A stretch of 64,000 nucleotides of DNA from an uncultured Candidatus Poseidoniales archaeon (GCA_902530535.1 CACAAP010000003.1:721-64720), one strand, 5' to 3'. Shown: positions 20,368 through 55,327, numbered from the stretch's first letter. Notes: a model not told the origin generated them from the letters alone. Made by a program: numbers and translations.

Positions 20368-20443
20368 TGGTAGTCCCGCCCGGATTCGAACCAGGGTCCC
20401 CGGGACCAAAACCCGAGATGATGGACCACTACACTACGGGACT
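20368..20443 (-). tRNA. tRNA-Gln (anticodon UUG), genomically encoded CCA
   Basis: Minus-strand sequence AGUCCCGUAGUGUAGUGGUCCAUCAUCUCGGGUUUUGGUCCCGGGGACCCUGGUUCGAAUCCGGGCGGGACUACCA. Acceptor AGUCCCG/CGGGACU, anticodon stem UCGGG/CCCGG, loop UUUUGGU (anticodon UUG), T loop UUCGAAU. Resembles archaeal tRNA-Gln. Confidence 0.85.
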
Positions 20444-27406: not shown

Positions 27407-27430
27407 GGTGTGTTTTTTGCACCATTTTTC
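27407..27430 (+). terminator. terminator-like element after hbd: hairpin GGTGT-GTTTTTT-GCACC followed by ATTTTTC
   Basis: Sits 19 nt after the hbd stop codon. The same GGTGT-N7(T-rich)-GCACC plus T-run motif recurs after the next giant gene (31141). Confidence 0.4.
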
Positions 27431-31135: not shown

Positions 31136-31140
31136 AATTG

Positions 31141-31172
31141 GTGTACTTTTTGCACCTTGTGTGTTTTTTTTA
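31141..31172 (+). terminator. terminator-like element after gene 27410-31135: GGTGT-ACTTTTT-GCACC then TTGTGTGTTTTTTTT
   Basis: Sits 6 nt after the stop codon. It has an oligo-T tract, typical of archaeal termination, and shares its core motif with 27407-27430. Confidence 0.45.
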
Positions 31173-31333
31173 CTGAAATATCAACAAATCATCTTTTCAT
31201 TGGATTTACATAAACAGGAAAAAAATAATGATAAAATTTACTTTATCCGAAAAAAACTTCCTAAACAGGTTATTTTATGAGTATTATTTTCCGGAATAGT
31301 GAAAAATTATCAAGATGAGCATTCTGAGAGATG

Positions 31334-31341
31334 TTTATATT
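31334..31341 (+). promoter_or_regulatory. archaeal TATA box (TTTATATT) for gene 31376-36721
   Basis: Lies within a 240-bp, about 28% GC spacer, about 35 nt upstream of the ATG, preceded by a purine-rich BRE-like AGATG. Confidence 0.45.
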
Positions 31342-31366
31342 TGATACAAGTCGTGATAGTCACTAA

Positions 31367-34300: not shown

Positions 34301-36721
34301 AACTCCGGAATGGACGCAGGCCCAGGACCATCCACAGCGATACACGTCAACGACTACGTGAACGCCACGAACAACACGCTATCGTGGAACGGATGGAACA
34401 AGGCAGGCCTAGACTCCACTGACAGGTTCACGTTCGACGTGCCTGCTAACCACGGGGTCAACATCGACCTGAGCCACGGCTACGACGTCCCCGACGTCTG
34501 GATGATCCTGGACATCTTCGACTCGTCCTGGAACCAGATAGGAATGTCGGCATATGGGTCCGGAGGCCAGACCTTCAACACCACCACGGTCGCTTCGCCG
34601 GCCGACTCATGGATGGGCATCGGAGTGAGGAACTGGGGCAGCTACGACACCACGGGGACCAACTACACGGTCAACGTGACATTCTACACCCTCGACGCGG
34701 ACGGCGACGGCTGGCTAGACCAGCTGGAGATCGACTGCGGCACGGATCCGAACGACGCCAACAGCACCCCAACCGACACCGACGGTGACGGAGTGTGCGA
34801 CTCGCTAGACGATGACATCGACGGAGACGGAATAGGCAACGACCTCGACGAGATGCCTCTCGACGAGAACGGGTCCTCCGATCTGGACGGAGACGGAATA
34901 TCCGACGAGGTAGACCCAGACATCGATGGCGACGGATGGTCCAACATCGCAGAGCAGATCTGCCTAGGCGCAACGAGCATGGCGCACATGGACGCCAACG
35001 TCACGCCAGGAGACTACGATGGCGACGACCTGTGCGACATCACGGCGGACTCCGACCTGGAGCACAGCTCCGCCAGCACATACCTGGACTCCGACGGTGA
35101 CAACGACGGCACGGACGACGAGACGGACGACTTCGACTTCGACGAGTGCGCCGACACCGACACCGACAGGGACGGGTTGCCCGACTCCATCGACACGGGA
35201 CTGCTGGACGCATCTAACAACACCATCTGCCTGCCAGAGACCCCAACGAACCTCACAGAGGACACGGACGACGACGGCGATGGCTTCGAGGACCTGTACG
35301 AGATCGACTGCGGAAGCAATCCGCTGCTCGCAATGGAGATGCCAACCGACAACGACGGCGACGACGAGTGCGACGCACTGGACGTTGACGACGACAACGA
35401 CGGCGTCAACGACACCGACGACCTGTGGCCGCTGGACTACACAGAGTGGTCCGACAACGACGGCGACGGACAGGGCGACAACAGGGACATGGACGACGAC
35501 AACGACGGATGGTGGGACTCCTGCGACCAGAGCGCATGGATGGCCGCCCAGAACTCGAGCCTGAACACGCCCTCTCACGTGGAGGGAGTCAACTACTTCT
35601 CAGGACAGCCTGCTGGAATAGCCAGCAACTGCCCGGACAACACGGACGCCTTCCCACTGGACGGCGCCGAGTGGATAGACACCGACGGCGACGGAGTCGG
35701 CAACAACGCTGACATAGACGACGACGGACAGATCTCCGGAAGCGCCGAGGCCCCAGGAAACAACGACTGGACCGACGCCGAGGAGGCTGCCTGCGGAACC
35801 GACCCACTGGACCACACGAGCGTCCCAGCGGACAACGACGGCGACTACATCTGCGATGCGGTCGACACGGACGACGACAACGACGGCGTGCCAGACGAGC
35901 TGGACGCGTTCCCGACTGACGAGACCGAGGCCGCTGACGCGGACGGCGACGGACAGGGCGACGCAACGGACGAAGACGACGACGATGACGGATGGACCGA
36001 CGTCGACGAGGCATCCTGCCTGACGGACCCAATGGACACCATGGACGTCCCAGCGGACAACGATGGGGACGGCGAGTGCGACCTGACCGACGGCGACGAC
36101 GACAACGACGGAGTGATCGACCTGGACGACGCGTTCCCGAACAACCCGATGGAGAGGGAAGACACCGACGGAGACGGAATCGGCGACAACACCGACAACG
36201 ACGACGACGGAGACGGATGGCTGGACGCCCAGGAGGTCGCTTGCGCCAACGCAGGCGGCTCGGGCGACAAGGACTCGGCCGCTGAGGAGCCCGTCGACCT
36301 AGACGGCGACGGACTCTGCGACGCAGTCGACCCAGACGACGACAACGACGGCTTCCCGGACCCAGCGTGCGTGAACACAGGCATCGGAACGCCATCCCAA
36401 CTCGCGTACGTCGAGTGCGCCGATGGCGACGAGGACAGATTCCCACGAGACAGCACGGAGTGGTTCGACGCCAACGAGGACGAGCAGGGAGACAACGCAA
36501 ACCCAGTCACCCTGATCGACAACGTGATGTTCGATCCCGCCCCATACGCGGGTATCGCAGTGGCAATCGGTGCCGCTGGATACGGCCTGCTACAGCTGAA
36601 CAGAAACGCTGGACAGGGAACAGAGGACGAGGCCGAGGACTACACTGAGGAGTTCGAGGACTTCGACTTCGAGGAGGACGACGAGCCATCTGACGACGAG
36701 GAAGATGGAGAGGAGGACTGA
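31367..36721 (+). CDS. giant secreted protein (1784 aa), paralogue of the previous gene: PPC-like/P-domain-like beta domains plus TSP3-like repeat array, TM anchor, poly-acidic tail (start probably ATG 31376)
   Basis: Signal peptide MNENATRSVNLTLLMIVSVCLPMLGALDA. PPC-like units (DSTDTSDIYAVWLP...DLDLQLYSD etc.) to about 34690. Junction YTLDADGDGWLDQLEIDCGTDPND... is homologous to the same junction in gene 27410-31135. TSP3 array 34690-36500. C-terminal hydrophobic helix then EDEAEDYTEEFEDFDFEEDDEPSDDEEDGEED. Confidence 0.8.
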   Translation: MTPMNENATRSVNLTLLMIVSVCLPMLGALDAPAELDRAGERSETLANCQGNDACRGVDAGNSADTYINLTDDFSWTGEETITYYGDEYNATGYSSSSANNYDGYIIDLPVGYGFTAEVVWNHTGASFWHNYAFMLALGPGDGCMVNYFACDWGYNYYSLTGNLVMGTDGEKEGGNYGGWYGADPPIDLVGDSAVVMVWCYYCFQSGVSMDYTLNITVWTGDGGQKGDVTSPQYNVLLDMPDEPSSWSYQSDTFDLSSGESADLVVTYCDVWCNPETSIVITKPDSTTDTFYLQDYFTGWLATYSDAGEYTVEKIDTYGDGGMGLTIGVSLGNFSSLLSVDDFVYDDMASGHVDSTDTSDIYAVWLPENYKANITLHWDNSADLDLQLYSDYDAATETLSGMFDYSWFDQPEFIDIGQLGDETMFFAEVIHYSGPSSGYILEYQTEPGAPPPCFFQDDGKAPGDGVFTGNGEDATEGAYAPDDTPTDVTGLVDADGNGVFQGMMCAGYDEADWYQISVAAGDGVWAMLEWPEGIDSNFNDTIEIEGDISFGMYMVTSSGYTSFVSSSYGFHPQTVATNESYSWTNDLGVDSTVYLRLLLNEMNEDYESNYTVTFSTYNATEEPWQMACQDDAGQAPIGGCLDAGDSYNEPVNLTTVNQTFEGWGHDSMDAYDFYKVYLPNNYAFEVCVEFPEQNDIDLGLFYLHPTYGYFYSIGNSYNDNPECVWAQYDDAGQDIYMRVWTDRGSGDYEVTITLATPGLEPGGNQDDCGMAGSVPGGDAADLVYPGAWSGHTFTNESTQADLNPLDENGSLREYWEGGVCTGWISYTWDSYDMYSISVPEGHYVNVEYDFDLEGEGDPSTYHRVYMLMCQNQHMPCQYPANGAFFIEQDYGYGMDVIEQNSGLWPVGTLHNASGCDTAYPNPVCAANGWDASNAVSDTAGWVYIYIWTCCSSAPDHEYEMNITFAPLSELEGGSQNDANSGMDAGPGPSTAIHVNDYVNATNNTLSWNGWNKAGLDSTDRFTFDVPANHGVNIDLSHGYDVPDVWMILDIFDSSWNQIGMSAYGSGGQTFNTTTVASPADSWMGIGVRNWGSYDTTGTNYTVNVTFYTLDADGDGWLDQLEIDCGTDPNDANSTPTDTDGDGVCDSLDDDIDGDGIGNDLDEMPLDENGSSDLDGDGISDEVDPDIDGDGWSNIAEQICLGATSMAHMDANVTPGDYDGDDLCDITADSDLEHSSASTYLDSDGDNDGTDDETDDFDFDECADTDTDRDGLPDSIDTGLLDASNNTICLPETPTNLTEDTDDDGDGFEDLYEIDCGSNPLLAMEMPTDNDGDDECDALDVDDDNDGVNDTDDLWPLDYTEWSDNDGDGQGDNRDMDDDNDGWWDSCDQSAWMAAQNSSLNTPSHVEGVNYFSGQPAGIASNCPDNTDAFPLDGAEWIDTDGDGVGNNADIDDDGQISGSAEAPGNNDWTDAEEAACGTDPLDHTSVPADNDGDYICDAVDTDDDNDGVPDELDAFPTDETEAADADGDGQGDATDEDDDDDGWTDVDEASCLTDPMDTMDVPADNDGDGECDLTDGDDDNDGVIDLDDAFPNNPMEREDTDGDGIGDNTDNDDDGDGWLDAQEVACANAGGSGDKDSAAEEPVDLDGDGLCDAVDPDDDNDGFPDPACVNTGIGTPSQLAYVECADGDEDRFPRDSTEWFDANEDEQGDNANPVTLIDNVMFDPAPYAGIAVAIGAAGYGLLQLNRNAGQGTEDEAEDYTEEFEDFDFEEDDEPSDDEEDGEED

Positions 36722-36725
36722 TAAT

Positions 36726-39700
36726 ATGGAAAAAGCAACACAGACAGCAAGAACGCTGCTTATGGTGGCTGTGATGGTAGCGGCAGCTATCGTCCCAATG
36801 GCCCCAGAGGCAGTAGAACTACGAGATGAAGCCAGGGCAATGGGGGCGTCGATTTCGACCGACGTCACCAGCCTAACCCTAGACGAGGGCGGTTCGAATT
36901 GGTACGAGGTGTCGCTAGACGAGGCACCTGATGGCACACTGGTCATCACGCCCTCTTCCGACAACTCGGTAGTCACCGTTGATCCATCGTACATCAAGTT
37001 CACGAAGGTCAACTGGGACATGCCCCAGTACATCTGGGTCGACATAACCGACACGGATGACGACGGCGCGGACACCACGGCTACTATCAGCCACAGCATC
37101 AGCGGATCCGACACAGTGTTCGCCTCCGCGACCATCGGCGACGTCTCAGTCACGGGTACCGACTACGACATCGACACGGACGGCGACGGCCTGCACGACG
37201 GCCTGGACACCGACGATGACGGCGACGGCATCGGCGACGGCAACGACGCATTCCCCCTGGACTCATCCGAGGACACCGACACCGACGGCGACGGAACGGG
37301 CGACAACGCCGACACCGACGACGACGGCGACGGCACCGCGGACTCCGACGACTGGGCACCCCTTGACGACTCGGAGGACACCGACACCGACGGCGACGGC
37401 ACCGGCGACAACGCCGACATCGACGACGACGGCGACGGCGTGAACGACTCCGACGAGGACGACGGCTGCGACCTGCTCGTAGACTGCGACGGCGACGGCG
37501 TGAACGACGACACGGACGCCTTCGACTCCGACGCCAACGAGTCAGCAGACGCTGACGGCGACGGCGTGGGTGACAACGCAGACGACTTCGACTCCGACGC
37601 GACCGAGGACACAGACACCGACGGCGACGGCGTGGGCGACAACGGGGACGCTTTCCCCGACGACTCCACCGAGACTACCGACTCCGACGGCGACGGCGTG
37701 GGAGACAACGGGGACGCTTTCCCCAACGACGCCTCCGAGACTACCGACACCGACGGCGACGGCGTGGGCGACAACTCCGACTGGAACGCCACAGACTCCA
37801 CCGAGTCCAACGACAACGACGGCGACGGCGTGGGCGACAACGCGGACACCGATGACGACGACGACGGCGTCCTGGACGTGGACGAAGACTCCAACGCGAC
37901 CCTCGACTGCAGCATCCTATCGGACTGCGACGGCGACGGGGTTGGCGACGCTACAGACGCATTCGACGTGGACCCAGAGGCATGGGACGACCTGGATGGA
38001 GACGGCCTTGCCGACACCTTCCCGAACCTGCTCGTGAACAGCTACGAGACGATCCAGCTTTGCGGACCAGAGGGCGGCACCGAGTTCTACGACGCGACTG
38101 CATACTCTGACGGCCCAACGGGCGACTACCTCGCAGTTTCGAGCTCCGACGACGACTCAAACGGAAACAACTACGAAGACACGGAGTGCACTTTCACTGT
38201 ACCATCGGGCTACACGGCCGATGTCTACCTTCAGACTGCCAGCTACGGAAGCGAGGCTAGGGTCACAGTGGACGGCACAACCTACTCGGGCTTTTCTACA
38301 GGCTCCGACAATGACGTAGTTTCCCTATCTGCAGGGACATACACCCTGTACTACGAGGACTCATACGGCGACGGATGCAACCCGAGCTCCTACTACGGGG
38401 CTTGCTTCGTGCAGGTCAGCTACGAGAACCTAGTCGGTCAGGTAGTGCCATCCACGAGCGGATTCGGCACAGACCTCGACAACGACGACGATGGCGATGG
38501 CTTCTCCGACGCAGACGAGGACACCTGCGGAACGGACTCCATGAATTCCACCGACGCCCCCACGGACACGGACTCGGATGGCCTCTGCGATGCAGGGGTC
38601 GATGACGACGATGACGACGACGGCGTGCTGGACTCCGACGAGGAGACCGGCTGCGACCTGCTGACGGACTGCGACGGAGACGGCGTGGGCGATGCAACGG
38701 ACACGCATGACAACGACGCTACAGAGACCTCCGACATGGACGGCGACGGCATCGGCGACAACTCCGACGACGACAGGGACGGCGACGGATACCTGAACTC
38801 CAACGACGAGTTCCCAGACGACGACTCGGAGTGGACTGACAACGACGGCGACGGGACGGGCGACAACGCCGACACCGACGACGACACCTGCCCAGAGGCC
38901 GACGGCACCGACGATGACGGCGACGGGACAGCCGACCACACCTGCGGCACCTTCACTGGGCTCGGATCCACTATGGGATACGACTTCTACCCAGGCGACG
39001 GCGTTGCGGACGTCGACGACGCTTTCCCCATGACTCCCGCAGAGTCCGCCGACAACGACGGCGACGGCTGGGGCGACAACGCGGACGCTGACGACGACAA
39101 CGACGGAATCAGCGACGCACAGGACGACGACATGGACGGCGACGGCTTCACCAACGACGACGAGGACACTAACTGCGTCGGCGATGGCGGAGACTCGACC
39201 AGCGCAGGCACCACCCCGGACGACATGGACGGCGACGGCACCTGCGACTACCTGGACGACGACACAGACGGCGACGGCACCGACGACACGTCAGACGCCT
39301 TCCCAGAGGACGCGTGCGCAGACACCGACACCGACGGGGACGGAGACCCAGACACGCTAGTGTCCGGCTGCTCCACCACACTGACGGAGGACGGCAACGA
39401 CGACTACGATCCAAGTGCCGCTCCTACTCCCACTTCTGTCTGCTCGATAGGATCAGGAAGCTTCGCTTCCGACAGCTGCACCTTCACGGTAGCCGCTGGC
39501 GACGAGCTAACAATCGAGATGACCACCACCAGCTGGGCTAGCGAGGCAGGACTGACTCTGCTCGAGCCAGGAGAGACGGCAGCCACCAACCTAGAGCTGC
39601 TAACGACATCCGGTTCCTTCAGCAACTACGGCAGCTACTCCTGGACCTACACTGATGCCGGTGAGTACACACTCACCATCACGGACAGCTATGGCGATGG

Positions 39701-42700
39701 CGGACAGTCAGCAAGCGCGGAGACGGTCGGAGCAACCCCCATATGGACTGACTCTGATGAGGCGACCTGTGGCACAGACCCACTAGATTCCACGGACGAG
39801 CCAACGGACACCGATGGCGATGGACTTTGCGACGACGCCCAGGACGACGACAACGACGGCGACGGCTTCTCCAACGCAGACGAGACGACCAACTGCGGCG
39901 AGGGCAACGACGCCCTGGACAGCACGGACTCCCCAACGGACACCGATGCCGATGGATCGTGCGACGCCCTCGACACCGATGACGACGGCGACGGAGTGGA
40001 TGACGCCAACGACGCCTGCCCTCTAGACGACGGCGAGTCAGTCGACACAGACGGGGACACCGTCTGCGACGGCGACGACACCGACGACGACGGCGACGGC
40101 ACGGCCGATGCAAGCGACGCATTCCCACTGGACTCGACTGAGGACACCGACACTGACAGCGACGGAATAGGCGACAACGCGGACACCGACGACGACAACG
40201 ACACAGTCGCTGACGCCAACGACGCATTCCCACTTGACGCCACCGAGACCACCGACACCGACGGCGACGGAACCGGCGACAACGCCGACACCGACGACGA
40301 CGGCGACGGCGTGGACGACGCAAGCGACGCATGCCCGCTCGATGGAGACGAGTCCGTCGACACCGACGGAGACGGCGTCTGCAACGGCGACGACACCGAC
40401 GACGACGGAGACGGCGTGGACGACGCGGACGAGGCAGATGGATCTGGCCTCGCTACCGCTACGGACTGCACACTAGTCACCGACTGCGACGGGGACGGAG
40501 TGGACGACGCGGACGAGGCAGATGGATCCGCACTGGACCTGGACGGCGATGGGACGGCTGACGGCATCGACTGCGCTGTCGACACCGACTGCGACGACGA
40601 CGGCACTGCCGACGACACCGACGCATTCCCTGTGGACGCTTCAGAGGCACTAGACACCGACGGCGACGGTACCGGCGACAACGCCGACACCGACGACGAC
40701 GGCGACGGCTACTCGGACGCTGACGAGACGACCAACTGCGGCGATGGCACCACCACGACCGCTTACTCGTCCTCCAGCGACCCGCTAAACGCATCCGACA
40801 CGCCCGACGACATGGACGGCGACGGGATCTGCGACTACACGGACACCGACAGGGACGGCGACGGACTGGCCAACGGCTGGGACGCATGCCCCGATGACGG
40901 ATCAGGATACACCGACACCGACGGCGACGGAGCCTGCGACGAGTCCGATACTGACGACGACGACGACGGCACCCTCGACGTGAATGACGCATTCCCGCTC
41001 GACGCTTCAGAGGACACCGACACCGACGGAGACGGCGTGGGGGACAACTCCGACGCTGACGACGACGGCGACGGCACTGACGACCAGGGCGACGAGTGCC
41101 CGCTCGACTCGAGCGGGATCACCGACAACGACGGCGACGGAGCCTGCGACGAGTCAGATACGGACGACGACGACGACACGGTCCTGGATGCCGACGAGGA
41201 TTCCGGCTGCGAGTTCGTGACGGACTGCGACGGAGACGGCGTGGGCGACGAGGTCGATGCGTTCGACACCGACGCCGAGGCGACGACCGACACAGACGGC
41301 GACGGCATGCCAGACTCTATCACCGGAGCAACACTGACCTCTGAGACATACACCCTAGAGGCTTGGGACGCAGCAGGATACACTGTCGTGTACGCCGAGG
41401 AGATCAACGGAGGCACGCTGTGCGTCATCGACTCCTCGCTCTTCGAGGACACATGCACATTCTCGACCTCGGTCGGAGTGAACGTCTACGCGGACAACAC
41501 GCAGTACTCCAGCTACCTGGCTGGAGACGGCGGAGCGATCCTGACGACCTCGGACGGAACCGAGCTAGTAAACGAGTCACTCGTGTACCAGTGGTACTAC
41601 GACAGCTACTTCGGAGTATACGACCTGTACTCGGACTCCGCGGTGACGACCACCGACGGTCTGGAGCTAGACGCGGACGACGACGGAGACGGATACGGGG
41701 ACGCAGCAGAGGACACCGACTGCTCAACAGGCGACTCCACCGACAGCAGCGTCACACCAGACGACAACGACGCTGACGGCATCTGCGACGATCTGGATGA
41801 CGACGACGACAACGACGGCTACAGCGACTCTCACGAGTCGGCCTGCGGCACTGACTCATTGACGGCGGACGACGTCTCAGACTTCGACGGCGACGGCACC
41901 TGCGACAGCGAGGACGCCGACGACGACGGAGACGGAACCGACGACGGCGACGACTGGGCTCCCTTCGACGGAAGCGAGTGGCTCGACACGGACAACGACG
42001 GAACCGGCGACAACGCCGATGACGACGCTGACGGCGACGGCACACCAGACTCCGACGACGTGGACGAGACCGACAGGTGCTCCAGCACGGACACCGATGG
42101 CGACGGGATGACCGACTCGTACGACGACTGCTCGGACATGGGCTTCTACTCCACGCTCGACGCTGATGCCGGTGACAACGCCGGCGAGGGCTTCGACGAC
42201 GGGGACCACGTAGGAATCACCGACGACACCACACTGTTCGGAGGCGCAGCCGCCGGCAACCAGTGGTTCCAGGTGGCTGACACAGACGGCGTGTTCAGGA
42301 TGTACTTCGACCACGCCACAGGCGTGTCCGCGGTATCTGCCTGGATAGCCCTAGCGAGCACCGACTACGAGGACGAGGACTACTACGCGTCCTACTGGGT
42401 CGGCGACGACGGCACCACCACAAAGATCGGCGACTCCCGCGACAGCTGGGGCAACATCGACAACTGCTGGTGCGAGGGATTCTGGGGCCAATGGGTCGTG
42501 GAAGTTCCCTCTGAGGACGGATACCTGATGCTCGAGGCCAGCAACGACGACGACGCCGAGCACTGGGGACTTGACAACGTGGCATACCACGACAACAACT
42601 GGGACGTAATATCGATGGTCACCTTCGAGGACTCGGTAGGGGACATGGGAGTCTACACGACCCCATCCACTCCGGCGCTCCTCGCGGGCACATACACCGT

Positions 42701-45700
42701 CCAGATCGACGACTCGTGGGGCGACGGCGGACACGGCATCACCGTGACCAACGGCGCAGACACGCTATGCACCATAGGCCAGTACGACTACACGTCCACA
42801 GCCAGCTGCACGTTCGACCTGACTGCCTACTCCGACGAGGAGATCTCGGTAGCGGTCGACACTGACAGCTACGCATCCGAGGGCACTCTTACGGTGACCT
42901 TCGACGACGGAAGCACTGCGGTTGAGACATGGTCTGGGGACACCTCGTTCGACTACGCGCACGTGGGCGACGAGCTCCTCGAGCAGGAAGGCGAGTACAC
43001 CATCACGATCTCCGACCCAGGTTGGGGAGACGGCGGTCACGGCGTCGAGGCATACTTCAACGGAGAGAGCGTCTGCTCGATAGGGCAGTACGACTACTCG
43101 AGCTCCGCGTCATGCACCTTCACCGGAACCGGATTCCCGGACTCGGTGCTGGACATCGACATCGATACCGACAGCTACCCATCAGAGGGACAGCTGGACG
43201 TGACGTTCCCAGACGGAACGACCGCTACGGAGACATGGTCCGCTGACACATCGTTCAGCTACGCAAGCCACTCGGGCACGGACGTGCAGCCAGTGGCAGG
43301 CGAGGTCATGCTGAGCAACGGGCACGGCGCCACAGTGAGCCTGGACACCTCGTCCTACCACACTGGGACCGTGGACGACGACGACGACAACGACGGCTTC
43401 GCCGACGATGACGACGCGTTCCCGACCGATGACAGCGAGTGGGACGACATGGACGGCGACGGGGTCGGATCGAACACCGACAACGACGACGACGGCGACG
43501 GCACCAACGATGGCGTAGACGACTTCCCACGCCACGCGCATGCTCAAACCGATACAGATGACGACGGTATGCCCGACGAGATAGGATGGACAAACGGAGA
43601 AATCTTCGAACACTTCGATGCTGGAAACTATACTGGTATGGACGATTACACAGACAATGGATGGGATAGATCAGGAGATTCTCTGTTCGGAATATCATCT
43701 GCTGGCTTCTTAGATGGATATGCCGCTAGAGCAGGGGCAATTTCAGATAATGAGTCCTCTTCCTTAGAGTTAGTAATTGAAACTGCAGGAGGATACCTTT
43801 CATTCGATTACATAATCGATACTGAAGAGCGCTATGACGTACTTTCATTCAGCATAGATGGGATGGAATACTTCAGTGCTAGCGGACAGGAATATCACTG
43901 GGAGTTCATTTGCGATACTGCTGGCTCATACTCAGACACATCTTGGGAAGCAAACTCTCTGAATGACGGTTCGATCCCAGGAGACTGGGTTAACGACGGA
44001 TACGCTGACTGTGGAGATACTGATGGCGATGGAATTTCAGACGATGAAGGCCAGAGTGACTGGTATTCGAAGATTGAAGGGACCTTTGAGACATGGATCG
44101 ATGAAGGAAACCACACTCTAACATGGACATACACTAAGGATGGCTCTGTTTCAGGAGGTAGCGATCGGTCATACATAGATAACATCGTCTTCCCGTACTA
44201 CGTTATTGGCGATGGAGAGTGCTCCGACGGCACAGATGACTGCAACATAGAGGACATGGACGACGACAACGACGGCGTCGACGACTGGGACGACGACTGC
44301 CCGACCGACGCAGGAGAGCAGACCGACACAGATGGTGACGGATGGTGCGACAACGCTGACGCGGACGACGACAACGACGGCACGTACGACTACAACGACG
44401 CCATGCCGCTGGACCCCAACGAGACCAGCGACTTCGATGGCGACGGAATAGGCGACAACGCCGACCCAGACGACGACAACGACGGATGCGACGACGAGGT
44501 GGACGATCTGCCTTACGACGACTCCGACTGCGTCGACACCGACGGCGATGGGGTCGGCGATGATGCCGACCTGGATGACGACGGCGACAACGTCATGGAC
44601 GTCGATGACCCATTCCCGCTAGACGGATCAGCTTGGGCAGACAACGACGGCGACGGGGAAGCAGACGTAACTGGCGACCCACCGTTCCTAGGCAACTTCG
44701 AGGGAGCCTCGATTCCAGCCGGATGGACCACATTCGGCGACGCAGACTGGTTCGTTTGCGGCATGGGAACCTGCGGCACCACCTCAGGCAACGCAATCAA
44801 CGGCTCTTACATGGCCGAGTCAGGAGACATCGCCGACGCGGAAACGAGCTCTATCGAAGTCTCAATCGACACCCTAGCAGGGGACGTCTCGTTCGCTTAC
44901 GAGACCTCCACGGAGACCAACTGGGACTACCTGAGGTTCTACGTGGATGGCAGCCTGACCATGAGCTGGTCGGGCGTGACCTCCGGAACGTACACGACCA
45001 CGGTCAGCGCTGGATACCACACTTTCGAGTGGATGTACTACAAGGACTTCAGCGTCAGCAGCAACGCCGACACAGTCTGGATCGACGACGTGAGCCTGCC
45101 AGTATCGCAGGTCACTAACAACAGCGACCCAGACGACGACAACGACGGCGTGTACGACGAGTTCGACATCGACCCGTTGGATCCATGCGTGAGCCTGGAC
45201 ACCGACGGCGACGGCGAGCCAGACTGGGTTATGACAGGACTGTTCGACATGAGCGGAACGGGCGACGAGCAGTTCATCGTGGACTGCGACGCATCGATGT
45301 GGTCCGAGGACTGGGACGACGACGGCGACGGATGGAGCGATGAGCTGGAAGAACTATGCGGATCGAACCACCTAGACGGAGACGAGATGCCGATGGACAT
45401 GGATCAGGACTTCGTCTGCGACGATCTTGACGACGACTTGGACAACGACGGGGCTGTCAACCCGGTGAACAACTGCGAACTGTACCTGAACTCAGGAGAG
45501 ACGGACGCCTTCATCGACTGCATAAGCGATAGCTTCCACGCAGTCGATGCCGACGGCGATGGAGAGGCATCCTACATGGAACTCATGCACGCATGGACCT
45601 TCCAGTGGGCCTCCTCCGACATTGACGACGGGGACGACATGGTCACCTTCTTCTGCGGCGACGGCTCGGAGATACCCTTCGAGTGGGTCAACGATGAGAT

Positions 45701-47639
45701 GGATGACTGCGAGGACGGAGCCGATGAGCAGCAGTACGACGAGAACGGCGATCCGATCAACTGGTTCGACTGCTATGACGGCACCCAGGTGTGGATCTAC
45801 CAGGTCAACGACGGCTATCCAGACTGCCCAGACGGGGATGACGAGATGCCTGACGACGACTGGGACGACGAGGGCGACGACGACTGGGACGACGAGGACG
45901 ACGACGGCGGCGATGACGAAGGTAGCGAGGACATGGGCGGAATCGGATCACGTGACAACCACGAGAACGGCACCGACGAGAACGGCACCGACGAGAACGG
46001 CACCGACGACGGCGACGACCACGACCACGGCGACGACCACGACCACGGCGACGAGAACGGCACCGACGACGACGGCGATGACGGCGGCGATATGGTCTGC
46101 TACAACATCATGACCCATTCGGTGACCAACGACACCAGCGAGGAAAGCTGCGACGGGTACGCGTACTACGAGAACGCCTCCTTCAACGGGGCGAACTTCA
46201 CTGGATGCTACAACATGGTAACACACGTGGTGACCGGTGACGACGAGGCAACCTGCGATTCATACATGTGGGTCAGCGCATCTGGAGGACCAGGTGACGG
46301 AGGAGATGGTACCGACGACGGGGACGATGACACTGAAGAGCCCGAGGAGCCCGAGGAACCCGAGTCATGGCCAAGCCAAGACGACATGGCTGAATTCGAC
46401 ATGATGTTCTGGGACTGGGTCTCCCAGTGGGACGCGGACGCTAGCGACTCCCTGAGCTTCGACGAATTCTGGCAGATCAACAATGATACTGAGGAAGACT
46501 GGGACTTCGAGAACCCAGGTTGGTCAGAGGACACGACCGATTGGGACCAGTTCCCCTTCGACCCATCAGAGCAGACTGACACCGACATGGACGGAATGGG
46601 CGACAACTCCGACACAGACGACGATAACGACGGCGTCCCGGACGGCCTCGACGCCTTCCCATACGACCCGACCGAGTCTGCCGACCTGGACGGTGACGGA
46701 ATCGGGGACAACTCCGACAACGACACAGACGGTGACGGAATCGACAACGATCAGGACGACTTCGACAGCGATCCAAACGCTGCCGCGGACAACGACCAGG
46801 ACGGCGTCGACGACGCTTCTGACTCGGACGACGACAACGACGGCGTGCCCGACGTTGCAGACTGGGCGCCTTTCGACGCCTCCGAGCAGTACGACACAGA
46901 TGGCGATGGAGTTGGTGACAACGCAGACACGGACGACGACAACGACGGAACCGCTGACGCTGACGACGCCTTCCCGCTGGATGCCAGCGAGAACGCGGAT
47001 GCTGACGGCGACGGGGTTGGGGACAACTCCGACCCAGACGACGACAACGACGGCACACCTGATGGTCTGGACGACTTCCCGAACGATGCCACTGAGCAGA
47101 GGGACTCTGACGGAGACGGAATCGGAGACATAGCCGATCCTGACAGGGACGAGGACGGATACCTGAACTCGGACGACGCGTTCCCGATGAACGCCAACGA
47201 GTGGATGGACACCGACGGCGACAACATCGGCGACAACTCCGATCCAGATATTGACGGAGACAACGTCCTGAATGACGACGACTGGTCACCCTACGATGAA
47301 AACTGCAGAGTTTCCATCGAGAACTGTGAGTGGATGGACACCGACGGCGACGGAACCGGGGACAACGCTGACTCAGACGACGATGACGATACATGGTCGG
47401 ATGCAGACGAGTACTCCTGCGGAACTGACTCGAAGAATGCGAACGCAGTTCCATCGGACTTCGACGGCGACGGAATCTGCGACGCCCTGGACTCCGAGGA
47501 CAACAGGGGAGACGCCGGAGCCGGAGCTGCACCAGACGTGGTCCAGGAGGAACCAGGCTTCACGCCAGGCTTCGCATCCGTGCTAGCAGTCGTGTCCCTA
47601 CTGGGCGCAGCCGCACTAGGACGACGCGAAGAGGACTGA
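36726..47639 (+). CDS. giant secreted mosaic protein (about 3640 aa): more than 40 TSP3-like Ca-binding repeats interspersed with P-domain-like repeats, two MAM-like domains, LDL-receptor-A-like modules and a hyper-acidic region; C-terminal PGF-CTERM sorting signal
   Basis: Signal peptide MEKATQTARTLLMVAVMVAAAIVPMA. Start is 4 nt after the stop of the previous gene, with GGAGG 11 nt upstream. TSP3 motif arrays are throughout. C-terminus reads EEPGFTPGFASVLAVVSLLGAAALGRREED (PGF motif, TM helix, basic residues). Confidence 0.8.
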   Translation: MEKATQTARTLLMVAVMVAAAIVPMAPEAVELRDEARAMGASISTDVTSLTLDEGGSNWYEVSLDEAPDGTLVITPSSDNSVVTVDPSYIKFTKVNWDMPQYIWVDITDTDDDGADTTATISHSISGSDTVFASATIGDVSVTGTDYDIDTDGDGLHDGLDTDDDGDGIGDGNDAFPLDSSEDTDTDGDGTGDNADTDDDGDGTADSDDWAPLDDSEDTDTDGDGTGDNADIDDDGDGVNDSDEDDGCDLLVDCDGDGVNDDTDAFDSDANESADADGDGVGDNADDFDSDATEDTDTDGDGVGDNGDAFPDDSTETTDSDGDGVGDNGDAFPNDASETTDTDGDGVGDNSDWNATDSTESNDNDGDGVGDNADTDDDDDGVLDVDEDSNATLDCSILSDCDGDGVGDATDAFDVDPEAWDDLDGDGLADTFPNLLVNSYETIQLCGPEGGTEFYDATAYSDGPTGDYLAVSSSDDDSNGNNYEDTECTFTVPSGYTADVYLQTASYGSEARVTVDGTTYSGFSTGSDNDVVSLSAGTYTLYYEDSYGDGCNPSSYYGACFVQVSYENLVGQVVPSTSGFGTDLDNDDDGDGFSDADEDTCGTDSMNSTDAPTDTDSDGLCDAGVDDDDDDDGVLDSDEETGCDLLTDCDGDGVGDATDTHDNDATETSDMDGDGIGDNSDDDRDGDGYLNSNDEFPDDDSEWTDNDGDGTGDNADTDDDTCPEADGTDDDGDGTADHTCGTFTGLGSTMGYDFYPGDGVADVDDAFPMTPAESADNDGDGWGDNADADDDNDGISDAQDDDMDGDGFTNDDEDTNCVGDGGDSTSAGTTPDDMDGDGTCDYLDDDTDGDGTDDTSDAFPEDACADTDTDGDGDPDTLVSGCSTTLTEDGNDDYDPSAAPTPTSVCSIGSGSFASDSCTFTVAAGDELTIEMTTTSWASEAGLTLLEPGETAATNLELLTTSGSFSNYGSYSWTYTDAGEYTLTITDSYGDGGQSASAETVGATPIWTDSDEATCGTDPLDSTDEPTDTDGDGLCDDAQDDDNDGDGFSNADETTNCGEGNDALDSTDSPTDTDADGSCDALDTDDDGDGVDDANDACPLDDGESVDTDGDTVCDGDDTDDDGDGTADASDAFPLDSTEDTDTDSDGIGDNADTDDDNDTVADANDAFPLDATETTDTDGDGTGDNADTDDDGDGVDDASDACPLDGDESVDTDGDGVCNGDDTDDDGDGVDDADEADGSGLATATDCTLVTDCDGDGVDDADEADGSALDLDGDGTADGIDCAVDTDCDDDGTADDTDAFPVDASEALDTDGDGTGDNADTDDDGDGYSDADETTNCGDGTTTTAYSSSSDPLNASDTPDDMDGDGICDYTDTDRDGDGLANGWDACPDDGSGYTDTDGDGACDESDTDDDDDGTLDVNDAFPLDASEDTDTDGDGVGDNSDADDDGDGTDDQGDECPLDSSGITDNDGDGACDESDTDDDDDTVLDADEDSGCEFVTDCDGDGVGDEVDAFDTDAEATTDTDGDGMPDSITGATLTSETYTLEAWDAAGYTVVYAEEINGGTLCVIDSSLFEDTCTFSTSVGVNVYADNTQYSSYLAGDGGAILTTSDGTELVNESLVYQWYYDSYFGVYDLYSDSAVTTTDGLELDADDDGDGYGDAAEDTDCSTGDSTDSSVTPDDNDADGICDDLDDDDDNDGYSDSHESACGTDSLTADDVSDFDGDGTCDSEDADDDGDGTDDGDDWAPFDGSEWLDTDNDGTGDNADDDADGDGTPDSDDVDETDRCSSTDTDGDGMTDSYDDCSDMGFYSTLDADAGDNAGEGFDDGDHVGITDDTTLFGGAAAGNQWFQVADTDGVFRMYFDHATGVSAVSAWIALASTDYEDEDYYASYWVGDDGTTTKIGDSRDSWGNIDNCWCEGFWGQWVVEVPSEDGYLMLEASNDDDAEHWGLDNVAYHDNNWDVISMVTFEDSVGDMGVYTTPSTPALLAGTYTVQIDDSWGDGGHGITVTNGADTLCTIGQYDYTSTASCTFDLTAYSDEEISVAVDTDSYASEGTLTVTFDDGSTAVETWSGDTSFDYAHVGDELLEQEGEYTITISDPGWGDGGHGVEAYFNGESVCSIGQYDYSSSASCTFTGTGFPDSVLDIDIDTDSYPSEGQLDVTFPDGTTATETWSADTSFSYASHSGTDVQPVAGEVMLSNGHGATVSLDTSSYHTGTVDDDDDNDGFADDDDAFPTDDSEWDDMDGDGVGSNTDNDDDGDGTNDGVDDFPRHAHAQTDTDDDGMPDEIGWTNGEIFEHFDAGNYTGMDDYTDNGWDRSGDSLFGISSAGFLDGYAARAGAISDNESSSLELVIETAGGYLSFDYIIDTEERYDVLSFSIDGMEYFSASGQEYHWEFICDTAGSYSDTSWEANSLNDGSIPGDWVNDGYADCGDTDGDGISDDEGQSDWYSKIEGTFETWIDEGNHTLTWTYTKDGSVSGGSDRSYIDNIVFPYYVIGDGECSDGTDDCNIEDMDDDNDGVDDWDDDCPTDAGEQTDTDGDGWCDNADADDDNDGTYDYNDAMPLDPNETSDFDGDGIGDNADPDDDNDGCDDEVDDLPYDDSDCVDTDGDGVGDDADLDDDGDNVMDVDDPFPLDGSAWADNDGDGEADVTGDPPFLGNFEGASIPAGWTTFGDADWFVCGMGTCGTTSGNAINGSYMAESGDIADAETSSIEVSIDTLAGDVSFAYETSTETNWDYLRFYVDGSLTMSWSGVTSGTYTTTVSAGYHTFEWMYYKDFSVSSNADTVWIDDVSLPVSQVTNNSDPDDDNDGVYDEFDIDPLDPCVSLDTDGDGEPDWVMTGLFDMSGTGDEQFIVDCDASMWSEDWDDDGDGWSDELEELCGSNHLDGDEMPMDMDQDFVCDDLDDDLDNDGAVNPVNNCELYLNSGETDAFIDCISDSFHAVDADGDGEASYMELMHAWTFQWASSDIDDGDDMVTFFCGDGSEIPFEWVNDEMDDCEDGADEQQYDENGDPINWFDCYDGTQVWIYQVNDGYPDCPDGDDEMPDDDWDDEGDDDWDDEDDDGGDDEGSEDMGGIGSRDNHENGTDENGTDENGTDDGDDHDHGDDHDHGDENGTDDDGDDGGDMVCYNIMTHSVTNDTSEESCDGYAYYENASFNGANFTGCYNMVTHVVTGDDEATCDSYMWVSASGGPGDGGDGTDDGDDDTEEPEEPEEPESWPSQDDMAEFDMMFWDWVSQWDADASDSLSFDEFWQINNDTEEDWDFENPGWSEDTTDWDQFPFDPSEQTDTDMDGMGDNSDTDDDNDGVPDGLDAFPYDPTESADLDGDGIGDNSDNDTDGDGIDNDQDDFDSDPNAAADNDQDGVDDASDSDDDNDGVPDVADWAPFDASEQYDTDGDGVGDNADTDDDNDGTADADDAFPLDASENADADGDGVGDNSDPDDDNDGTPDGLDDFPNDATEQRDSDGDGIGDIADPDRDEDGYLNSDDAFPMNANEWMDTDGDNIGDNSDPDIDGDNVLNDDDWSPYDENCRVSIENCEWMDTDGDGTGDNADSDDDDDTWSDADEYSCGTDSKNANAVPSDFDGDGICDALDSEDNRGDAGAGAAPDVVQEEPGFTPGFASVLAVVSLLGAAALGRREED
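37620..37751 (+). repeat. 66-bp in-frame tandem duplication (2 copies, about 93% identical, with a partial third) inside the TSP3 array
   Basis: gacggcgacggcgtgggcgacaacggggacgctttccccgacgactccaccgagactaccgactcc is repeated with 4-5 substitutions. Confidence 0.8.
45963..46007 (+). repeat. 15-bp microsatellite (gagaacggcaccgac x3 = ENGTD x3), followed by an 18-bp x2 (DHDHGD x2) repeat
   Basis: Perfect direct repeats seen directly in the hyper-acidic region of the 3644-aa gene. Confidence 0.85.
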
Positions 47640-47663
47640 TCCGAAAGGATCCACACAACGTAA

Positions 47664-47699
47664 CCCCGGGCCGGGGGCCACCCGGCACCCGGCCCGGGG
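47664..47699 (+). terminator. perfect GC-rich inverted repeat (12-bp stem CCCCGGGCCGGG / CCCGGCCCGGGG) downstream of the 3644-aa gene
   Basis: Sits 25 nt after the stop codon. Seen directly in the sequence. Its function as a terminator, RNA-stability element or protein site is inferred. Confidence 0.4.
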
Positions 47700-47709
47700 C
47701 CACAACCCA

Positions 47710-48129
47710 ATGCTGATAAGTCCCCCATATCACAAGGGAATCATGCCAGGCACGACAAGGGCCGAGATCAGGACGCTGAAGATAGGGAGATACGTAGCGA
47801 TCGAGGAAGACGCATACAAGATTCTCAGCATGTCCAAGTCCAAACCGGGCAAGCACGGCTCAGCCAAGGCCAGGATAGAGCTGGAGGACATCTTCACAGG
47901 TCAGAAGAAGTCACACGTCGGTACCGTTACCGATACCATAAACATCCCACTCATCGAGAAGGGATCTGCCATAATCACCCACATCCAGGGCAACGAGGTC
48001 CATGCAATGGACAACAAGACCTACCAGACGCTCATCCTACCAGTCGAGGAAGGTATGAACCTGCAGTCCGGAGGGGAGATCCAATGGATGGAGGCAATGG
48101 GCAGGTACAAGATCAGCAGGGACCACTAG
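47710..48129 (+). CDS. eif5a: translation initiation factor 5A (aIF-5A); start probably ATG 47743
   Basis: SKSKPGKHGSAKARIE hypusine loop (the K in GKHG). Collinear with archaeal aIF-5A (MAGTKQVNVGSLKVGQYV... compared with MPGTTRAEIRTLKIGRYV...). Confidence 0.85.
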   Translation: MLISPPYHKGIMPGTTRAEIRTLKIGRYVAIEEDAYKILSMSKSKPGKHGSAKARIELEDIFTGQKKSHVGTVTDTINIPLIEKGSAIITHIQGNEVHAMDNKTYQTLILPVEEGMNLQSGGEIQWMEAMGRYKISRDH

Positions 48130-54535: not shown

Positions 54536-55327
54536 GTGGCTGACGCTCCTATTGAGATGTGGGAGATGCAACTGGCTTTTGCAATAGGATTGCTGGGCAT
54601 CTACGTAGGCTGGAGGGGAACTATAGCCAGGATGACGGGTTTCTATGACCTATCTGGTGCTGCAAAGTCATTGTTATTTGGAATTGTCTCAGGAGTGCTT
54701 GCCGCTTCAGCAATCGACGCACTAATTCTAGCCGAAGTTAGGAATCAATCTCAGAACATCATCTCACTTAGCTCGATAGCTTTCATGATAGCTCTGGCTG
54801 AATCGTCTTTCGTACTTTTTCTGCTCGGTAGAACTAGAACTGTTGGATTGAGGGCTTGCGCCCCTTACGGATGGACTCTAGGTTTGGGTTTCGGTGCAAT
54901 GCGCTCAGCCCACCTCAACGTACGTCTATTCGATCCAGTAGTCTGGGAAGGTACCGGATTCAGTGCTCAGAACATCGCTCTAGCGTGTTTACTGACAATT
55001 ACTACCTGCCTAGCGCATGCATCCATAGGTACTTGGCAAGGGTCTAGAATTCTGGATAATCAAAGATTTCGACCTCTTGTATACGCCTCATTCGCTAGGA
55101 TGGTAGTTATTCTAGTGACGGTGCTTTCTGTCTTCTTCCCATTGACCATCGCTCTCTTGGCCCCATTCGTCGTTTGGTCTTGGTTTCCAGCCCAGGAGTC
55201 TTGGCTGCCGTCTGGTATGACTCCAGCAGCCAGACAGGCATACAGGCGCACACTTCGGCAATCCGTCGTCAACCGGTCTCGAGCACAAACCAGAATTAGG
55301 GGAGAAACCGTGGAATCAGAAGAATAG
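54536..55327 (+). CDS. hypothetical integral membrane protein (about 7 TM)
   Basis: 263-aa hydrophobic ORF. No confident family. Confidence 0.4.
   Translation: MADAPIEMWEMQLAFAIGLLGIYVGWRGTIARMTGFYDLSGAAKSLLFGIVSGVLAASAIDALILAEVRNQSQNIISLSSIAFMIALAESSFVLFLLGRTRTVGLRACAPYGWTLGLGFGAMRSAHLNVRLFDPVVWEGTGFSAQNIALACLLTITTCLAHASIGTWQGSRILDNQRFRPLVYASFARMVVILVTVLSVFFPLTIALLAPFVVWSWFPAQESWLPSGMTPAARQAYRRTLRQSVVNRSRAQTRIRGETVESEE

Follow-up and report, generated by a model that had tools for sequence, protein, structure and literature searches.

A PGF-CTERM sorting signal on a giant TSP3-repeat protein of Poseidoniales archaea, beside neighbours with transmembrane anchors and cytoplasmic tails

On sequence and profile evidence, the last ~30 residues of a giant 3644-aa protein of an uncultured Candidatus Poseidoniales archaeon are a genuine PGF-CTERM sorting signal. 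The gene lies in a stretch of 64,000 nucleotides (GCA_902530535.1, CACAAP010000003.1:721-64720), hereafter the window. The signal is conserved, is restricted to its lineage and contrasts with the C-termini of the neighbouring membrane proteins. We consider it probable that the signal is read by an ArtA-type enzyme and that the giant protein is lipid-anchored, with the S8 protease and the paralogues p2 and p3 remaining permanent type-I membrane proteins. The existence of the enzyme, the cleavage and the lipidation would follow by analogy with the haloarchaeal system. Archaea of Marine Group II (MGII) are among the most abundant of the surface ocean; to our knowledge none has been brought into culture, and what is known of their envelope therefore comes from sequence only.

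The final residues of the translated ORF read ...EEPGFTPGFASVLAVVSLLGAAALGRREED, followed by the stop codon, and the C-terminal end is ...VVQEEPGFTPGFASVLAVVSLLGAAALGRREED. The tripartite layout proposed for this end in the preliminary description, namely a PGF motif, an abutting hydrophobic helix and an Arg-containing cluster (GRR, then EED), was confirmed by the sequence and by PF18204, which scored 19.8 bits against a gathering cutoff of 18.8. Of the two PGF copies (Table 1), the second is the one aligned to the motif of TIGR04126 and PF18204; 24 residues separate its start from the stop codon, compared with 28 for the first, which places the signal at the extreme C-terminus. The Poseidoniales flavour of the signal consists of PGF, 10 residues, GAA, 2 residues, GRR and x-[DEN]-[DE]-COOH, with a typical ending of GRR[KRE][DEN][DE]-COOH, and in the giant protein its PGF is duplicated. 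Scoring of the last 99 aa with TIGR04126, which had been suggested as a check, gave a divided result: it was the top sorting-signal family (E 2.3e-5), but its 23.9 bits stayed under the curated cutoff of 24.5. The same model reached 18.6 bits in a 50-aa context and was absent from the matches of the full-length protein to NCBIfam at E<=0.001. The expectation that only one protein of the locus would carry the signal held, as the C-termini of the S8 protease and of the 1241-aa and 1784-aa proteins gave no sorting-signal match even at E<=10, and the giant was the sole ORF in the window with PGF, helix and basic C-terminus. A back-translated signal pattern had a single match in the window and none in 100 shuffles.

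Table 1. Features of the surface-protein locus, with positions counted from the first nucleotide of the window.
Feature	Position	Strand	Basis or detail
S8 subtilase, 1988 aa	20530..26496	+	Peptidase_S8 1.9e-33; TM helix 26398-26460; basic tail RIARRRMVRSE 26461-26493
3-hydroxyacyl-CoA dehydrogenase	26540..27388	+	Left conserved anchor of variable surface-protein block
1241-aa paralogue p2	27410..31135	+	Stalk EWEDRNSDGLGDNAHPLTIMDKMKLNP; TM helix 30974-31039; tail 31040-31132
1784-aa paralogue p3 (PPC-like domains and TSP3 repeats)	31367..36721	+	Stalk 36443-36544; TM helix 36545-36598
Giant secreted TSP3-repeat protein with PGF-CTERM	36705..47639	+	3644 codons; ORF and profile searches
N-terminal signal/anchor region of giant, MERRTDNMEKATQTARTLLMVAVMVAAAIVPMAP	36705..36806	+	Putative Sec-type by inspection; read from sequence
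Tandem PGF-T-PGF signature	47553..47573	+	PGF at 47553-47561 and 47565-47573
Hydrophobic helix ASVLAVVSLLGAAAL, 15 residues, abutting PGF	47574..47618	+	Kyte-Doolittle 17-mer peak 2.19
GRR basic cluster, then acidic EED and stop codon	47619..47639	+	Sequence
GC-rich hairpin between giant's stop and aIF5A	47660..47703	+	-41 kcal/mol, z -4.45
aIF5A	47743..48129	+	Right conserved anchor of surface-protein block

The carrier of the signal is extremely acidic, with a pI of about 4 and a D+E content of 30.5%. The first 17 nt of its ORF overlap the end of the preceding gene, and inspection of the N-terminus, ...TARTLLMVAVMVAAAIVPMAP, revealed basic residues followed by a hydrophobic core, from which export is predicted. 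A regular expression for calcium-binding motifs of the TSP3-like DxDxDGxxDxxD type matched the giant 82 times, p2 19 times and p3 20 times, so that all three proteins contain the repeated motif described by PF02412 / PF18884. Against these Pfam TSP_3 models, the whole giant protein scored 24.3 bits, just under the gathering cutoff of 25 because of its composition.

A strict DNA pattern of the signal variant was run on 185,579 species-representative genomes (596 Gb). It yielded 71 matches, every one a true, in-frame ORF end, of which 70 were on contigs titled Poseidoniales, MGII or unclassified marine archaeal MAGs; in at least 66 of the 71, the PGF-CTERM gene is the one just before aIF5A, the arrangement seen in the window. 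The signal is thus conserved in positional orthologues across Poseidoniales, and the variant is essentially diagnostic for the order. Among 66 orthologous tails, 46 matched TIGR04126 at E<=0.01, compared with five, four and one for the MYXO, Heimdall and Loki CTERM models, respectively, and a marine homologue class, TPGFGLVLATLAMLCAAMIVGRRR, passed the curated TIGR04126 cutoff (25.9 against 24.5). We suggest that this NCBIfam model under-annotates the lineage. When the last 844 aa of the giant were used as a homology query, independently of the strict pattern, 120 matches were returned, roughly 35 of which, as read by eye and unscripted, end in PGF, helix and RR[KR][DE]; all or nearly all of these are archaeal-type, with variable linkers and in several sequence classes. 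Unrelated proteins on MGII contigs bear the signal as well, namely a fasciclin/plastocyanin protein (L014) and a TSP3 protein (L016, PF18204 16.8 bits). In addition to these two, the lineage as a whole shows at least five classes of tail, borne by different ectodomains, whereas the window has a single carrier. Order-wide, therefore, a giant TSP3 protein encoded at one and the same place in the genome bears a conserved PGF-CTERM tag, which provides a concrete prediction of lipid-anchored surface proteins in MGII, and the variant itself offers an easy way to recognise MGII contigs by sequence.

Homologues of the repeat region are also found in bacteria. TSP3 proteins of marine Gammaproteobacteria and Bacteroidota share homologous repeats with the giant at 43-58% identity in the best BLASTP local alignments, which cover about 28-42% of the 844-aa query, but they differ from it in signals, enzymes and envelope architectures. 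The gammaproteobacterial homologues carry the GlyGly-CTERM signal of the rhombosortase system (21.7 against a cutoff of 15.5) and those of Bacteroidota a T9SS tail (33.6 against 23). As each group bears the signal of its own phylum, PGF-CTERM looks like the native sorting tag of the Poseidoniales lineage. The top whole-protein NCBIfam match of the giant was the TSP3 region of the Myxococcus MYXO-CTERM cohesion protein MtsC (NF047638), at 63.5 bits far under the equivalog cutoff of 350. MtsC is likewise a TSP3 surface protein with a short tripartite C-terminal signal, but this signal has an invariant Cys motif, its myxosortase is a CPBP protease and its host is a diderm bacterium.

The neighbouring proteins end differently. 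The TM-plus-tail ends assigned to them earlier were recovered as described for the S8 protease (RIARRRMVRSE), for p2, whose C-terminus is a TM helix followed by RSRMKEQFDDDRGWDEGPEEDDGYYDEWEYQ (RSRMKEQ, then an acidic/aromatic stretch), and for p3, whose tail is acidic. The poly-Glu/Asp character of the latter stood, with 23 D/E by hand count, but its length is 40 residues (36599-36718; NRNAGQG, then about 33 residues, including a conserved core, EDYTEEFEDFDFE), slightly less than the roughly 45 aa reported. Describing these acidic tails as unusual was apt but in one respect understated, since beyond composition their orthologues keep sequence modules with an aromatic-acidic core. The view of the locus as four paralogous giant proteins had to be abandoned: p2 and p3 are true paralogues (27% over 837 aa by BLASTP, plus a common C-terminal stalk), the S8 protease gave no BLASTP HSP with p2, p3 or the giant, and the giant matched p2 and p3 through short TSP3 repeats only. 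TM helix and tail of p2 and p3 are kept in orthologues (for p2, L008, P0150 and P0163), as is the contrast of one PGF-CTERM protein with TM-plus-tail neighbours in orthologous loci, and neither tail matched any Pfam or NCBIfam family. The S8 protease and the two PPC/TSP3 paralogues, p2 and p3, are best explained as permanent type-I membrane proteins with conserved cytoplasmic tails that probably have an intracellular binding partner. Acidic clusters also occur in the cytoplasmic tails of other type-I membrane proteins, such as eukaryotic furin. The p2 and p3 ends would resemble furin-type tails in their single C-terminal TM helix, few basic residues and conserved acidic tail with aromatics, as an analogy and not by homology; we know of no archaeal binding partner. 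That the three anchor types correspond to different surface layers or release modes is speculation.

The closest known system is that of Haloferax volcanii, where proteins are cleaved and lipidated in an ArtA-dependent manner that requires the PGF motif as well as PssA and PssD (PMC6098224, PMC7157517), the substrates being the S-layer glycoprotein Csg and eight others. In both cases, an extreme C-terminal PGF abuts a hydrophobic helix followed by an Arg cluster on a secreted, very acidic surface protein. The HMMs that matched this C-terminus best were PF18204 and TIGR04126, together with the C-terminal ends of models for ArtA-dependent S-layer glycoproteins. Full-length similarity to the latter (TIGR04216 / NF041335) was not found for the giant, of which the last ~30-48 residues alone align, with 12-18 bits where the cutoffs are 400 and 1100; as a TSP3 adhesin-like protein, it resembles S-layer glycoproteins in the signal only. 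It further differs in that the haloarchaeal Thr-rich O-glycosylation linker is absent, PGF is duplicated, the PGF-x10-GAA-xx-GRR spacing is fixed and the terminus is acidic, and its host is a marine Thermoplasmatota archaeon instead of a halophile or methanogen. The 3644-aa product is best explained as an extremely acidic TSP3-repeat protein of adhesin type that binds Ca2+ and is exported by the Sec route. By analogy with H. volcanii, it would most likely be kept in the membrane after export by its C-terminal helix. A gene elsewhere in the genome would supply an intramembrane cysteine protease of archaeosortase A type, and this enzyme would recognise PGF beside the helix and cut off the helix with the basic/acidic end, after which an archaeal lipid would be joined to the new C-terminus. 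With the helix removed and the lipid in place, the protein would sit on the outer face, held by the lipid, and no part of it would reach the cytoplasm. In vivo, helix removal and lipid attachment have been described in H. volcanii and some methanogens only (PMC6098224, PMC7157517).

The sorting enzyme was searched for in the window and about 1 Mb of related loci. Archaeosortase models TIGR04125, TIGR04178 and PF09721 found no match among the scanned ORFs of the window. Filtering of 89 related loci left 26 candidate membrane ORFs, and the five of them that were scanned contained no archaeosortase either; the same held for nine loci (L001-L006, L158-L160) whose gene tables carry Pfam annotation. 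Cleavage and lipid anchoring are therefore processes that we infer. This negative result, the TIGR04126 score under the cutoff and the plain TM anchoring of the neighbouring genes would all accord with a permanent TM anchor bearing a short charged stub, whose likeness to PGF-CTERM arose by descent or convergence, with neither cleavage nor lipidation in Poseidoniales. We regard such an anchor as unlikely, given that it does not need a conserved PGF abutting the helix, yet this PGF is kept across tail classes and unrelated ectodomains. Moreover, the stub of the giant is about 6 residues, compared with conserved tails of 11-40 residues on the adjacent anchors, and the homologues in other phyla all bear processed sorting signals.

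A little less likely still is processing by a non-canonical enzyme, either another archaeosortase subfamily or an unrelated intramembrane protease, possibly with release into the medium as the outcome. There are precedents in rhombosortase and the CPBP myxosortases, which are unrelated readers of other tripartite signals (bioRxiv 10.1101/2023.06.07.544157); the variant is limited to one order and scores sub-threshold for a model trained on halophiles and methanogens, and the sequence examined yielded no ArtA. This absence, however, refers to the window and the related loci scanned, PGF abutting the helix is the specific hallmark of ArtA substrates (bioRxiv 10.1101/2023.06.07.544157), and 31 of the 66 orthologous tails matched the C-terminal ends of models for ArtA-dependent S-layer glycoproteins of haloarchaea. 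Two unknown membrane proteins of the window (18892..20226 and 54536..55327) had no exosortase match (Pfam E<=1, NCBIfam E<=0.001), and the product of the latter, a 263-aa conserved membrane protein, lacks invariant Cys, His and Ser residues as well as any motif resembling that of a protease, which argues against its being such an enzyme. Comparably doubtful is a broader proposal, in which Poseidoniales would lack canonical ArtA, a divergent or unrelated enzyme would read the order-specific variant, and the acidic [YF]TEEF and Pro-rich tails would be a second, new module coupling adhesins to a cytoplasmic partner. In keeping with this proposal, anchor modules appear to have been exchanged among stalks that are homologous, with P0131-type proteins as the example. 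Should Poseidoniales genomes prove to have no archaeosortase, a new sorting enzyme would be implied. It is highly improbable that the likeness arose by chance or that the end of this low-complexity ORF was miscalled, as low scores of short-motif models and the highly repetitive gene might suggest; this reading is effectively refuted by the shuffles, the in-frame ORF ends of all 71 matches and the conserved synteny, in addition to the Pfam gathering cutoff being passed.

The lipid-anchored reading would extend a known signal type to an order for which PGF-CTERM is not discussed in the searchable literature. Counting against that reading, the literature searched describes archaeosortases in halophiles and methanogens only (bioRxiv 10.1101/2023.06.07.544157) and contained no paper linking them to MGII. 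Genes for "thrombospondin" proteins are widespread in Poseidoniales and tied to adhesion, with their mode of attachment not stated (Rinke et al., PMC6461757).

With respect to genomic context, no T-tract terminator was found between the giant gene and aIF5A. The window is nearly identical to Marine Group II SAG AH-287-M04 and MAG REDSEA-S42_B7, and two related loci (L005 and L006) have the same gene order. Separately, the signal pattern exposed one mis-binned contig.

Between 20.5 and 47.6 kb of the window, ORF calling yielded four large co-oriented genes, encoding an S8 subtilase, a 1241-aa protein (p2), a 1784-aa protein (p3) and a 3644-aa protein with thrombospondin-type-3 (TSP3) repeats (the giant). 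All four proteins are hydrophobic at the N-terminus, with a pI near 4, and the giant contains 30.5% Asp+Glu and approximately 82 thrombospondin-type-3-like calcium-binding motifs. Its translation ends in ...VVQEEPGFTPGFASVLAVVSLLGAAALGRREED*, which comprises two tandem PGF motifs, a hydrophobic stretch of 15 residues and, 3' of the latter, GRR followed by EED. A preliminary description had assigned a PGF-CTERM signal to just one of four large paralogous surface proteins, with three anchoring solutions in one locus. Every C-terminus quoted there matched the translation of the four ORFs, and the PGF-CTERM-type end was found on the giant only, without a similar end on any other ORF of the window. 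The p3 tail was acidic and long, as described, with a length of 40 residues past the helix instead of about 45. The proposed paralogy of all four proteins was wrong: only p2 and p3 are true paralogues, whose PPC-like domains align in BLASTP over 837 aa (27% identity) and which share a C-terminal stalk ([FW]-x-D-x-N-x-D-G-x-GDNA-x-P-[LV]-T-[LI]-x-D ... P, followed by the helix). The protease gave no BLASTP similarity to p2, p3 or the giant, and the giant has individual TSP3 repeats in common with p2/p3 and nothing more.

Coordinates of the features discussed, in the window and in related loci (L-numbers) from other genomes and metagenomes
Feature	Sequence	Coordinates	Strand	Remarks
RNase P RNA, archaeal	window	13400..13691	-	235.7 bits
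tRNA-Lys(CTT)	window	14516..14592	+	
444-aa polytopic membrane protein	window	18892..20226	-	family unassigned
tRNA-Gln(TTG)	window	20368..20443	-	
S8 subtilase, 1988 aa	window	20530..26496		C-terminus: TM + RIARRRMVRSE (translation)
Block of p2, p3 and giant genes	window	27410..47639		20 kb, dehydrogenase to aIF5A
p2, 1241 aa	window	27410..31135		3' of 3-hydroxyacyl-CoA dehydrogenase gene; C-terminus: TM + RSRMKEQ + acidic/aromatic tail
p3, 1784 aa	window	31367..36721		C-terminus: TM + NRNAGQG + ~33 mostly acidic residues
p3 acidic tail	window	36599..36718		orthologues among P0121-P0177 (homologous proteins retrieved by search)
Overlap of p3 and giant genes	window	36705..36721		17 nt
Giant, 3644 aa	window	36705..47639		C-terminus: PGF-CTERM signal (translation)
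Tandem PGF motifs (two) of giant	window	47553-47573		
Hydrophobic stretch of giant	window	47574-47618		15 residues; hydropathy peak 2.19
Hairpin	window	47660..47703		GC-rich, perfect; between giant stop and aIF5A
263-aa membrane protein	window	54536..55327	+	~7 TM; no Pfam/NCBIfam family; adjoins SRP54
p2 orthologue with PPPPPGF tail	L011	9013-12918		
p2 orthologue with PPPPPGF tail	L013	10850-14140		
p2 orthologue with PPPPPGF tail	L015	1446-4715		
Dehydrogenase-aIF5A junction	L014	5716-7110		three-gene block absent
Dehydrogenase-aIF5A junction	L018	8364-10802		three-gene block absent
Small p3-stalk protein with PGF-CTERM	L158	10001-10939		gene context unrelated

The full-length giant was scored against the Pfam PGF-CTERM model (PF18204), where it reached 19.8 bits, above the gathering cutoff of 18.8. 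Scoring against the NCBIfam model TIGR04126, as the preliminary description had suggested, was also performed; this model was the top NCBIfam match for the last 99 residues of the giant (E 2.3e-5), with 23.9 bits versus a curated cutoff of 24.5. The C-termini of the S8 protease, p2 and p3, which served as internal negative controls, had no match to the sorting-signal models at E<=10, and the back-translated signal pattern was found once in the window and in 0 of 100 shuffles. In an alignment of 66 distinct orthologous C-terminal tails from Poseidoniales, 46 matched TIGR04126 at E<=0.01 (best E 3.7e-5) and 31 matched the C-terminus of the model for the haloarchaeal S-layer glycoprotein dependent on archaeosortase A (ArtA), compared with just 5, 4 and 1 for the MYXO-, Heimdall- and Loki-CTERM models, respectively. 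These tails were fragments of 50–60 residues, a context that depresses TIGR04126 scores (the window tail fell from 23.9 bits in 99 aa to 18.6 when cut to 50 aa), and seldom attained the curated cutoff of 24.5 bits. Among the tails scored individually, the TPGFG class was the only one to exceed it (25.9 bits). Annotation resting on TIGR04126 probably under-calls PGF-CTERM substrates in Poseidoniales.

Conservation was assessed with the last 844 residues of the giant as a homology query, which returned 2079 proteins, the best 120 of which were inspected. Among the matches listed, named homologues of the giant came from 'Candidatus Thalassarchaeaceae', 'Candidatus Poseidoniales' and 'Euryarchaeota archaeon' MAGs, and those of archaeal type fell into several classes of PGF-CTERM-like end, preceded by widely differing linkers, namely PGFTPGF[AP]SVLAAISLLGAA.LGRRK[DE]D, VPGFPALFAAIALVGAALLGRRKDD, LPGFT.VISTLALLGAAIGVGLSGRRKND, TPGFGLVLATLAMLCAAMIVGRRR and PAPGIGFALVAMLGAAMLAGRRNE. 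In addition, the strict DNA pattern PGF-x10-GAA-xx-GRR-x-[DEN]-[DE]-stop was scanned against 185,579 species-representative genomes, resulting in 71 matches, each of them an ORF end in frame. Seventy of these lay in contigs titled as Poseidoniales, Marine Group II (MGII) or unclassified marine 'Euryarchaeota', 'Methanobacteriota' or 'Thermoplasmatota' archaeon MAGs. The other contig (L148; JABSQH010000054.1, 4.5 kb), titled as an 'Ilumatobacteraceae bacterium' MAG, carried an MGII-type PGF-CTERM gene end and an aIF5A 77% identical to that of the window, and is probably a mis-binned archaeal contig, as it also encodes this MGII-like aIF5A. As the invariant columns P-G-F, G-A-A and G-R-R of the tail alignment were imposed by the search pattern, they were not counted as evidence, and the homology-based set was used instead.

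As in the window, whose flanks encode archaeal aIF5A, RFC large subunit, TrmY and SRP54, the aIF5A gene was found directly 3' of the PGF-CTERM gene in at least 66 of the 71 pattern matches. Two contigs of 72.8 kb and 1.6 Mb had the common order PGF-CTERM gene, aIF5A, OPT, EamA, SurE/TrmY, SRP54, 263-aa membrane protein, TrkA and TrkH. The closest loci, from SAG AH-287-M04 and the MAG 'Marine group II euryarchaeote REDSEA-S42_B7', had an identical signal, with aIF5A 100% and OPT 98–99% identical to the window. From the archaeal flanking genes and RNase P RNA, the named homologues of the giant and these closest loci, the window was assigned to an MGII archaeon (Thermoplasmatota, Poseidoniales). 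Based on the lineage of the pattern matches, the aIF5A synteny and the common gene order, the giant is a positional orthologue retained across the order, and its signal variant is essentially diagnostic of Poseidoniales.

The bacterial proteins retrieved with the same query resembled the giant in the TSP3-repeat region but differed in the sorting signal, as each ended in that of its own phylum. Homologues from Agarivorans, Colwellia and Pseudoalteromonas bore GlyGly-CTERM (18–21.7 bits versus a cutoff of 15.5), and in Saccharicrinis a T9SS type-A tail was present (33.6 versus a cutoff of 23). The best NCBIfam match of the whole giant was the TSP3 region of MtsC, a myxobacterial MYXO-CTERM protein. 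That archaeal members bear PGF-CTERM where bacterial homologues bear the signal of their own phylum argues for a working sorting tag of Poseidoniales and against a decorative resemblance.

The anchors of the neighbours were compared in dehydrogenase-anchored metagenome loci and through a second homologue search. Orthologues of the S8 protease retained the TM and basic residues, with longer tails in some, and those of p2 retained GR[SR]..KE.[YF]DED..W...YY.DWE. Common to the p3 orthologues were the helix, R..GG[RK] and an acidic tail containing an aromatic core ([DE][YF]TE[ED]F or YDETE[EQ]F), the core being present in nearly all of the approximately 24 complete tails when read by eye and in 15 of 25 with a stricter regex. 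No Pfam or NCBIfam family covered the p3 acidic tail. Given the motifs retained in p2 and p3 orthologues, these tails are selected sequence modules rather than mere acidic filler. In other MGII lineages, p2 orthologues retained the stalk and TM helix and had a cytoplasmic tail of 130–170 aa in which PPPPPGF is repeated; of the three compared, L013 and L015 also had a conserved terminal domain, SSWE.LPPGG.YT.TDPL.Y.G.GIGTWVERD.ESWEKI. Four proteins of approximately 312 aa (P0131, P0143, P0145 and P0147) possessed a p3-type stalk, with 67% identity, but a PGF-CTERM end, ..LPGFGLLLTLVALTIGAVIRRPLRA. As p3-type stalks thus end either in PGF-CTERM or in TM plus acidic tail, anchor modules have apparently been exchanged on homologous stalks. 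In two loci, aIF5A directly followed the dehydrogenase gene, so that the block encoding p2, p3 and the giant behaves as a variable surface-protein island.

In Haloferax volcanii, ArtA cleaves the C-terminal helix off PGF-CTERM proteins, which also receive a lipid; processing is abolished by PGF permutation and needs PssA and PssD, and whether it is a one-step transpeptidation is undecided (PMC6098224, PMC7157517, bioRxiv 10.1101/2023.06.07.544157). Archaeosortases have been placed in halophiles and methanogens (bioRxiv 10.1101/2023.06.07.544157). The sequences themselves show the signal, how it is conserved and how the neighbouring anchors differ from it. By analogy, we infer an enzyme, cleavage and a lipid for the giant, which would be exported by Sec, then held in the membrane by its C-terminal helix, cut at PGF or close to it and retained on a lipid anchor without a cytoplasmic part; no peptides would then be expected to cover ASVLAVVSLLGAAALGR. 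The S8 protease, p2 and p3 would stay type-I membrane proteins, with tails able to contact cytoplasmic partners.

NCBIfam and Pfam scans of the plausible window ORFs gave no match to the archaeosortase/exosortase models TIGR04125 and PF09721. Among the membrane-protein ORFs extracted from 89 related loci of MGII type, 26 were non-homologous to window proteins, and approximately 21 of these were judged spurious antisense ORFs of D-rich genes; Pfam scans of the remaining five revealed no archaeosortase, nor did the Pfam-annotated gene tables of the related loci contain one. Likewise, none linked to MGII was found in the literature searched or in MGII comparative-genomics supplements. The sequence covered is a small part of a genome presumed to span approximately 2 Mb, so these negative results say little genome-wide. 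That canonical ArtA is missing, and hence that a new sorting enzyme operates, together with a new tail-coupling module, is viewed as rather improbable. The giant's signal is of a known kind, in an order-specific variant that falls narrowly under one curated cutoff. Its finding in another euryarchaeal-grade lineage would be no surprise to the specialist, and in the literature searched the signal was not discussed for Poseidoniales. Useful and testable aspects are the conservation of position throughout the order, the use of the variant as a diagnostic marker, its under-annotation by TIGR04126 and the conserved cytoplasmic tails of the neighbours.

The 263-aa membrane protein was conserved beside SRP54 in 15 Poseidoniales loci with approximately 50% identity, and its invariant polar residues include R27, D38, D61, E89, R106 and R130. 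It was rejected as a sorting enzyme because it has no family match and because no Cys, His or Ser was invariant across 16 orthologues. The 444-aa membrane protein is encoded divergently from the S8 protease gene, likewise in two MAG contigs (L001 and L002). The ATG of the giant gene overlaps the end of the p3 gene, an arrangement suggestive of co-transcription with coupled translation, and a second in-frame start (MEKATQ...) is found 21 nt downstream. The hairpin has a computed stability of -41 kcal/mol (z-score -4.45; equally stable in 0 of 200 shuffles), and no T-tract was found 3' of it. Look-ups of identical proteins gave no match for aIF5A, the dehydrogenase, GlyRS and the giant, probably owing to differing start codons or sequences, nor for the proteins at the two window edges. 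Finally, the RpiA of the window has exact protein copies in marine MAGs and a Tara Oceans assembly.
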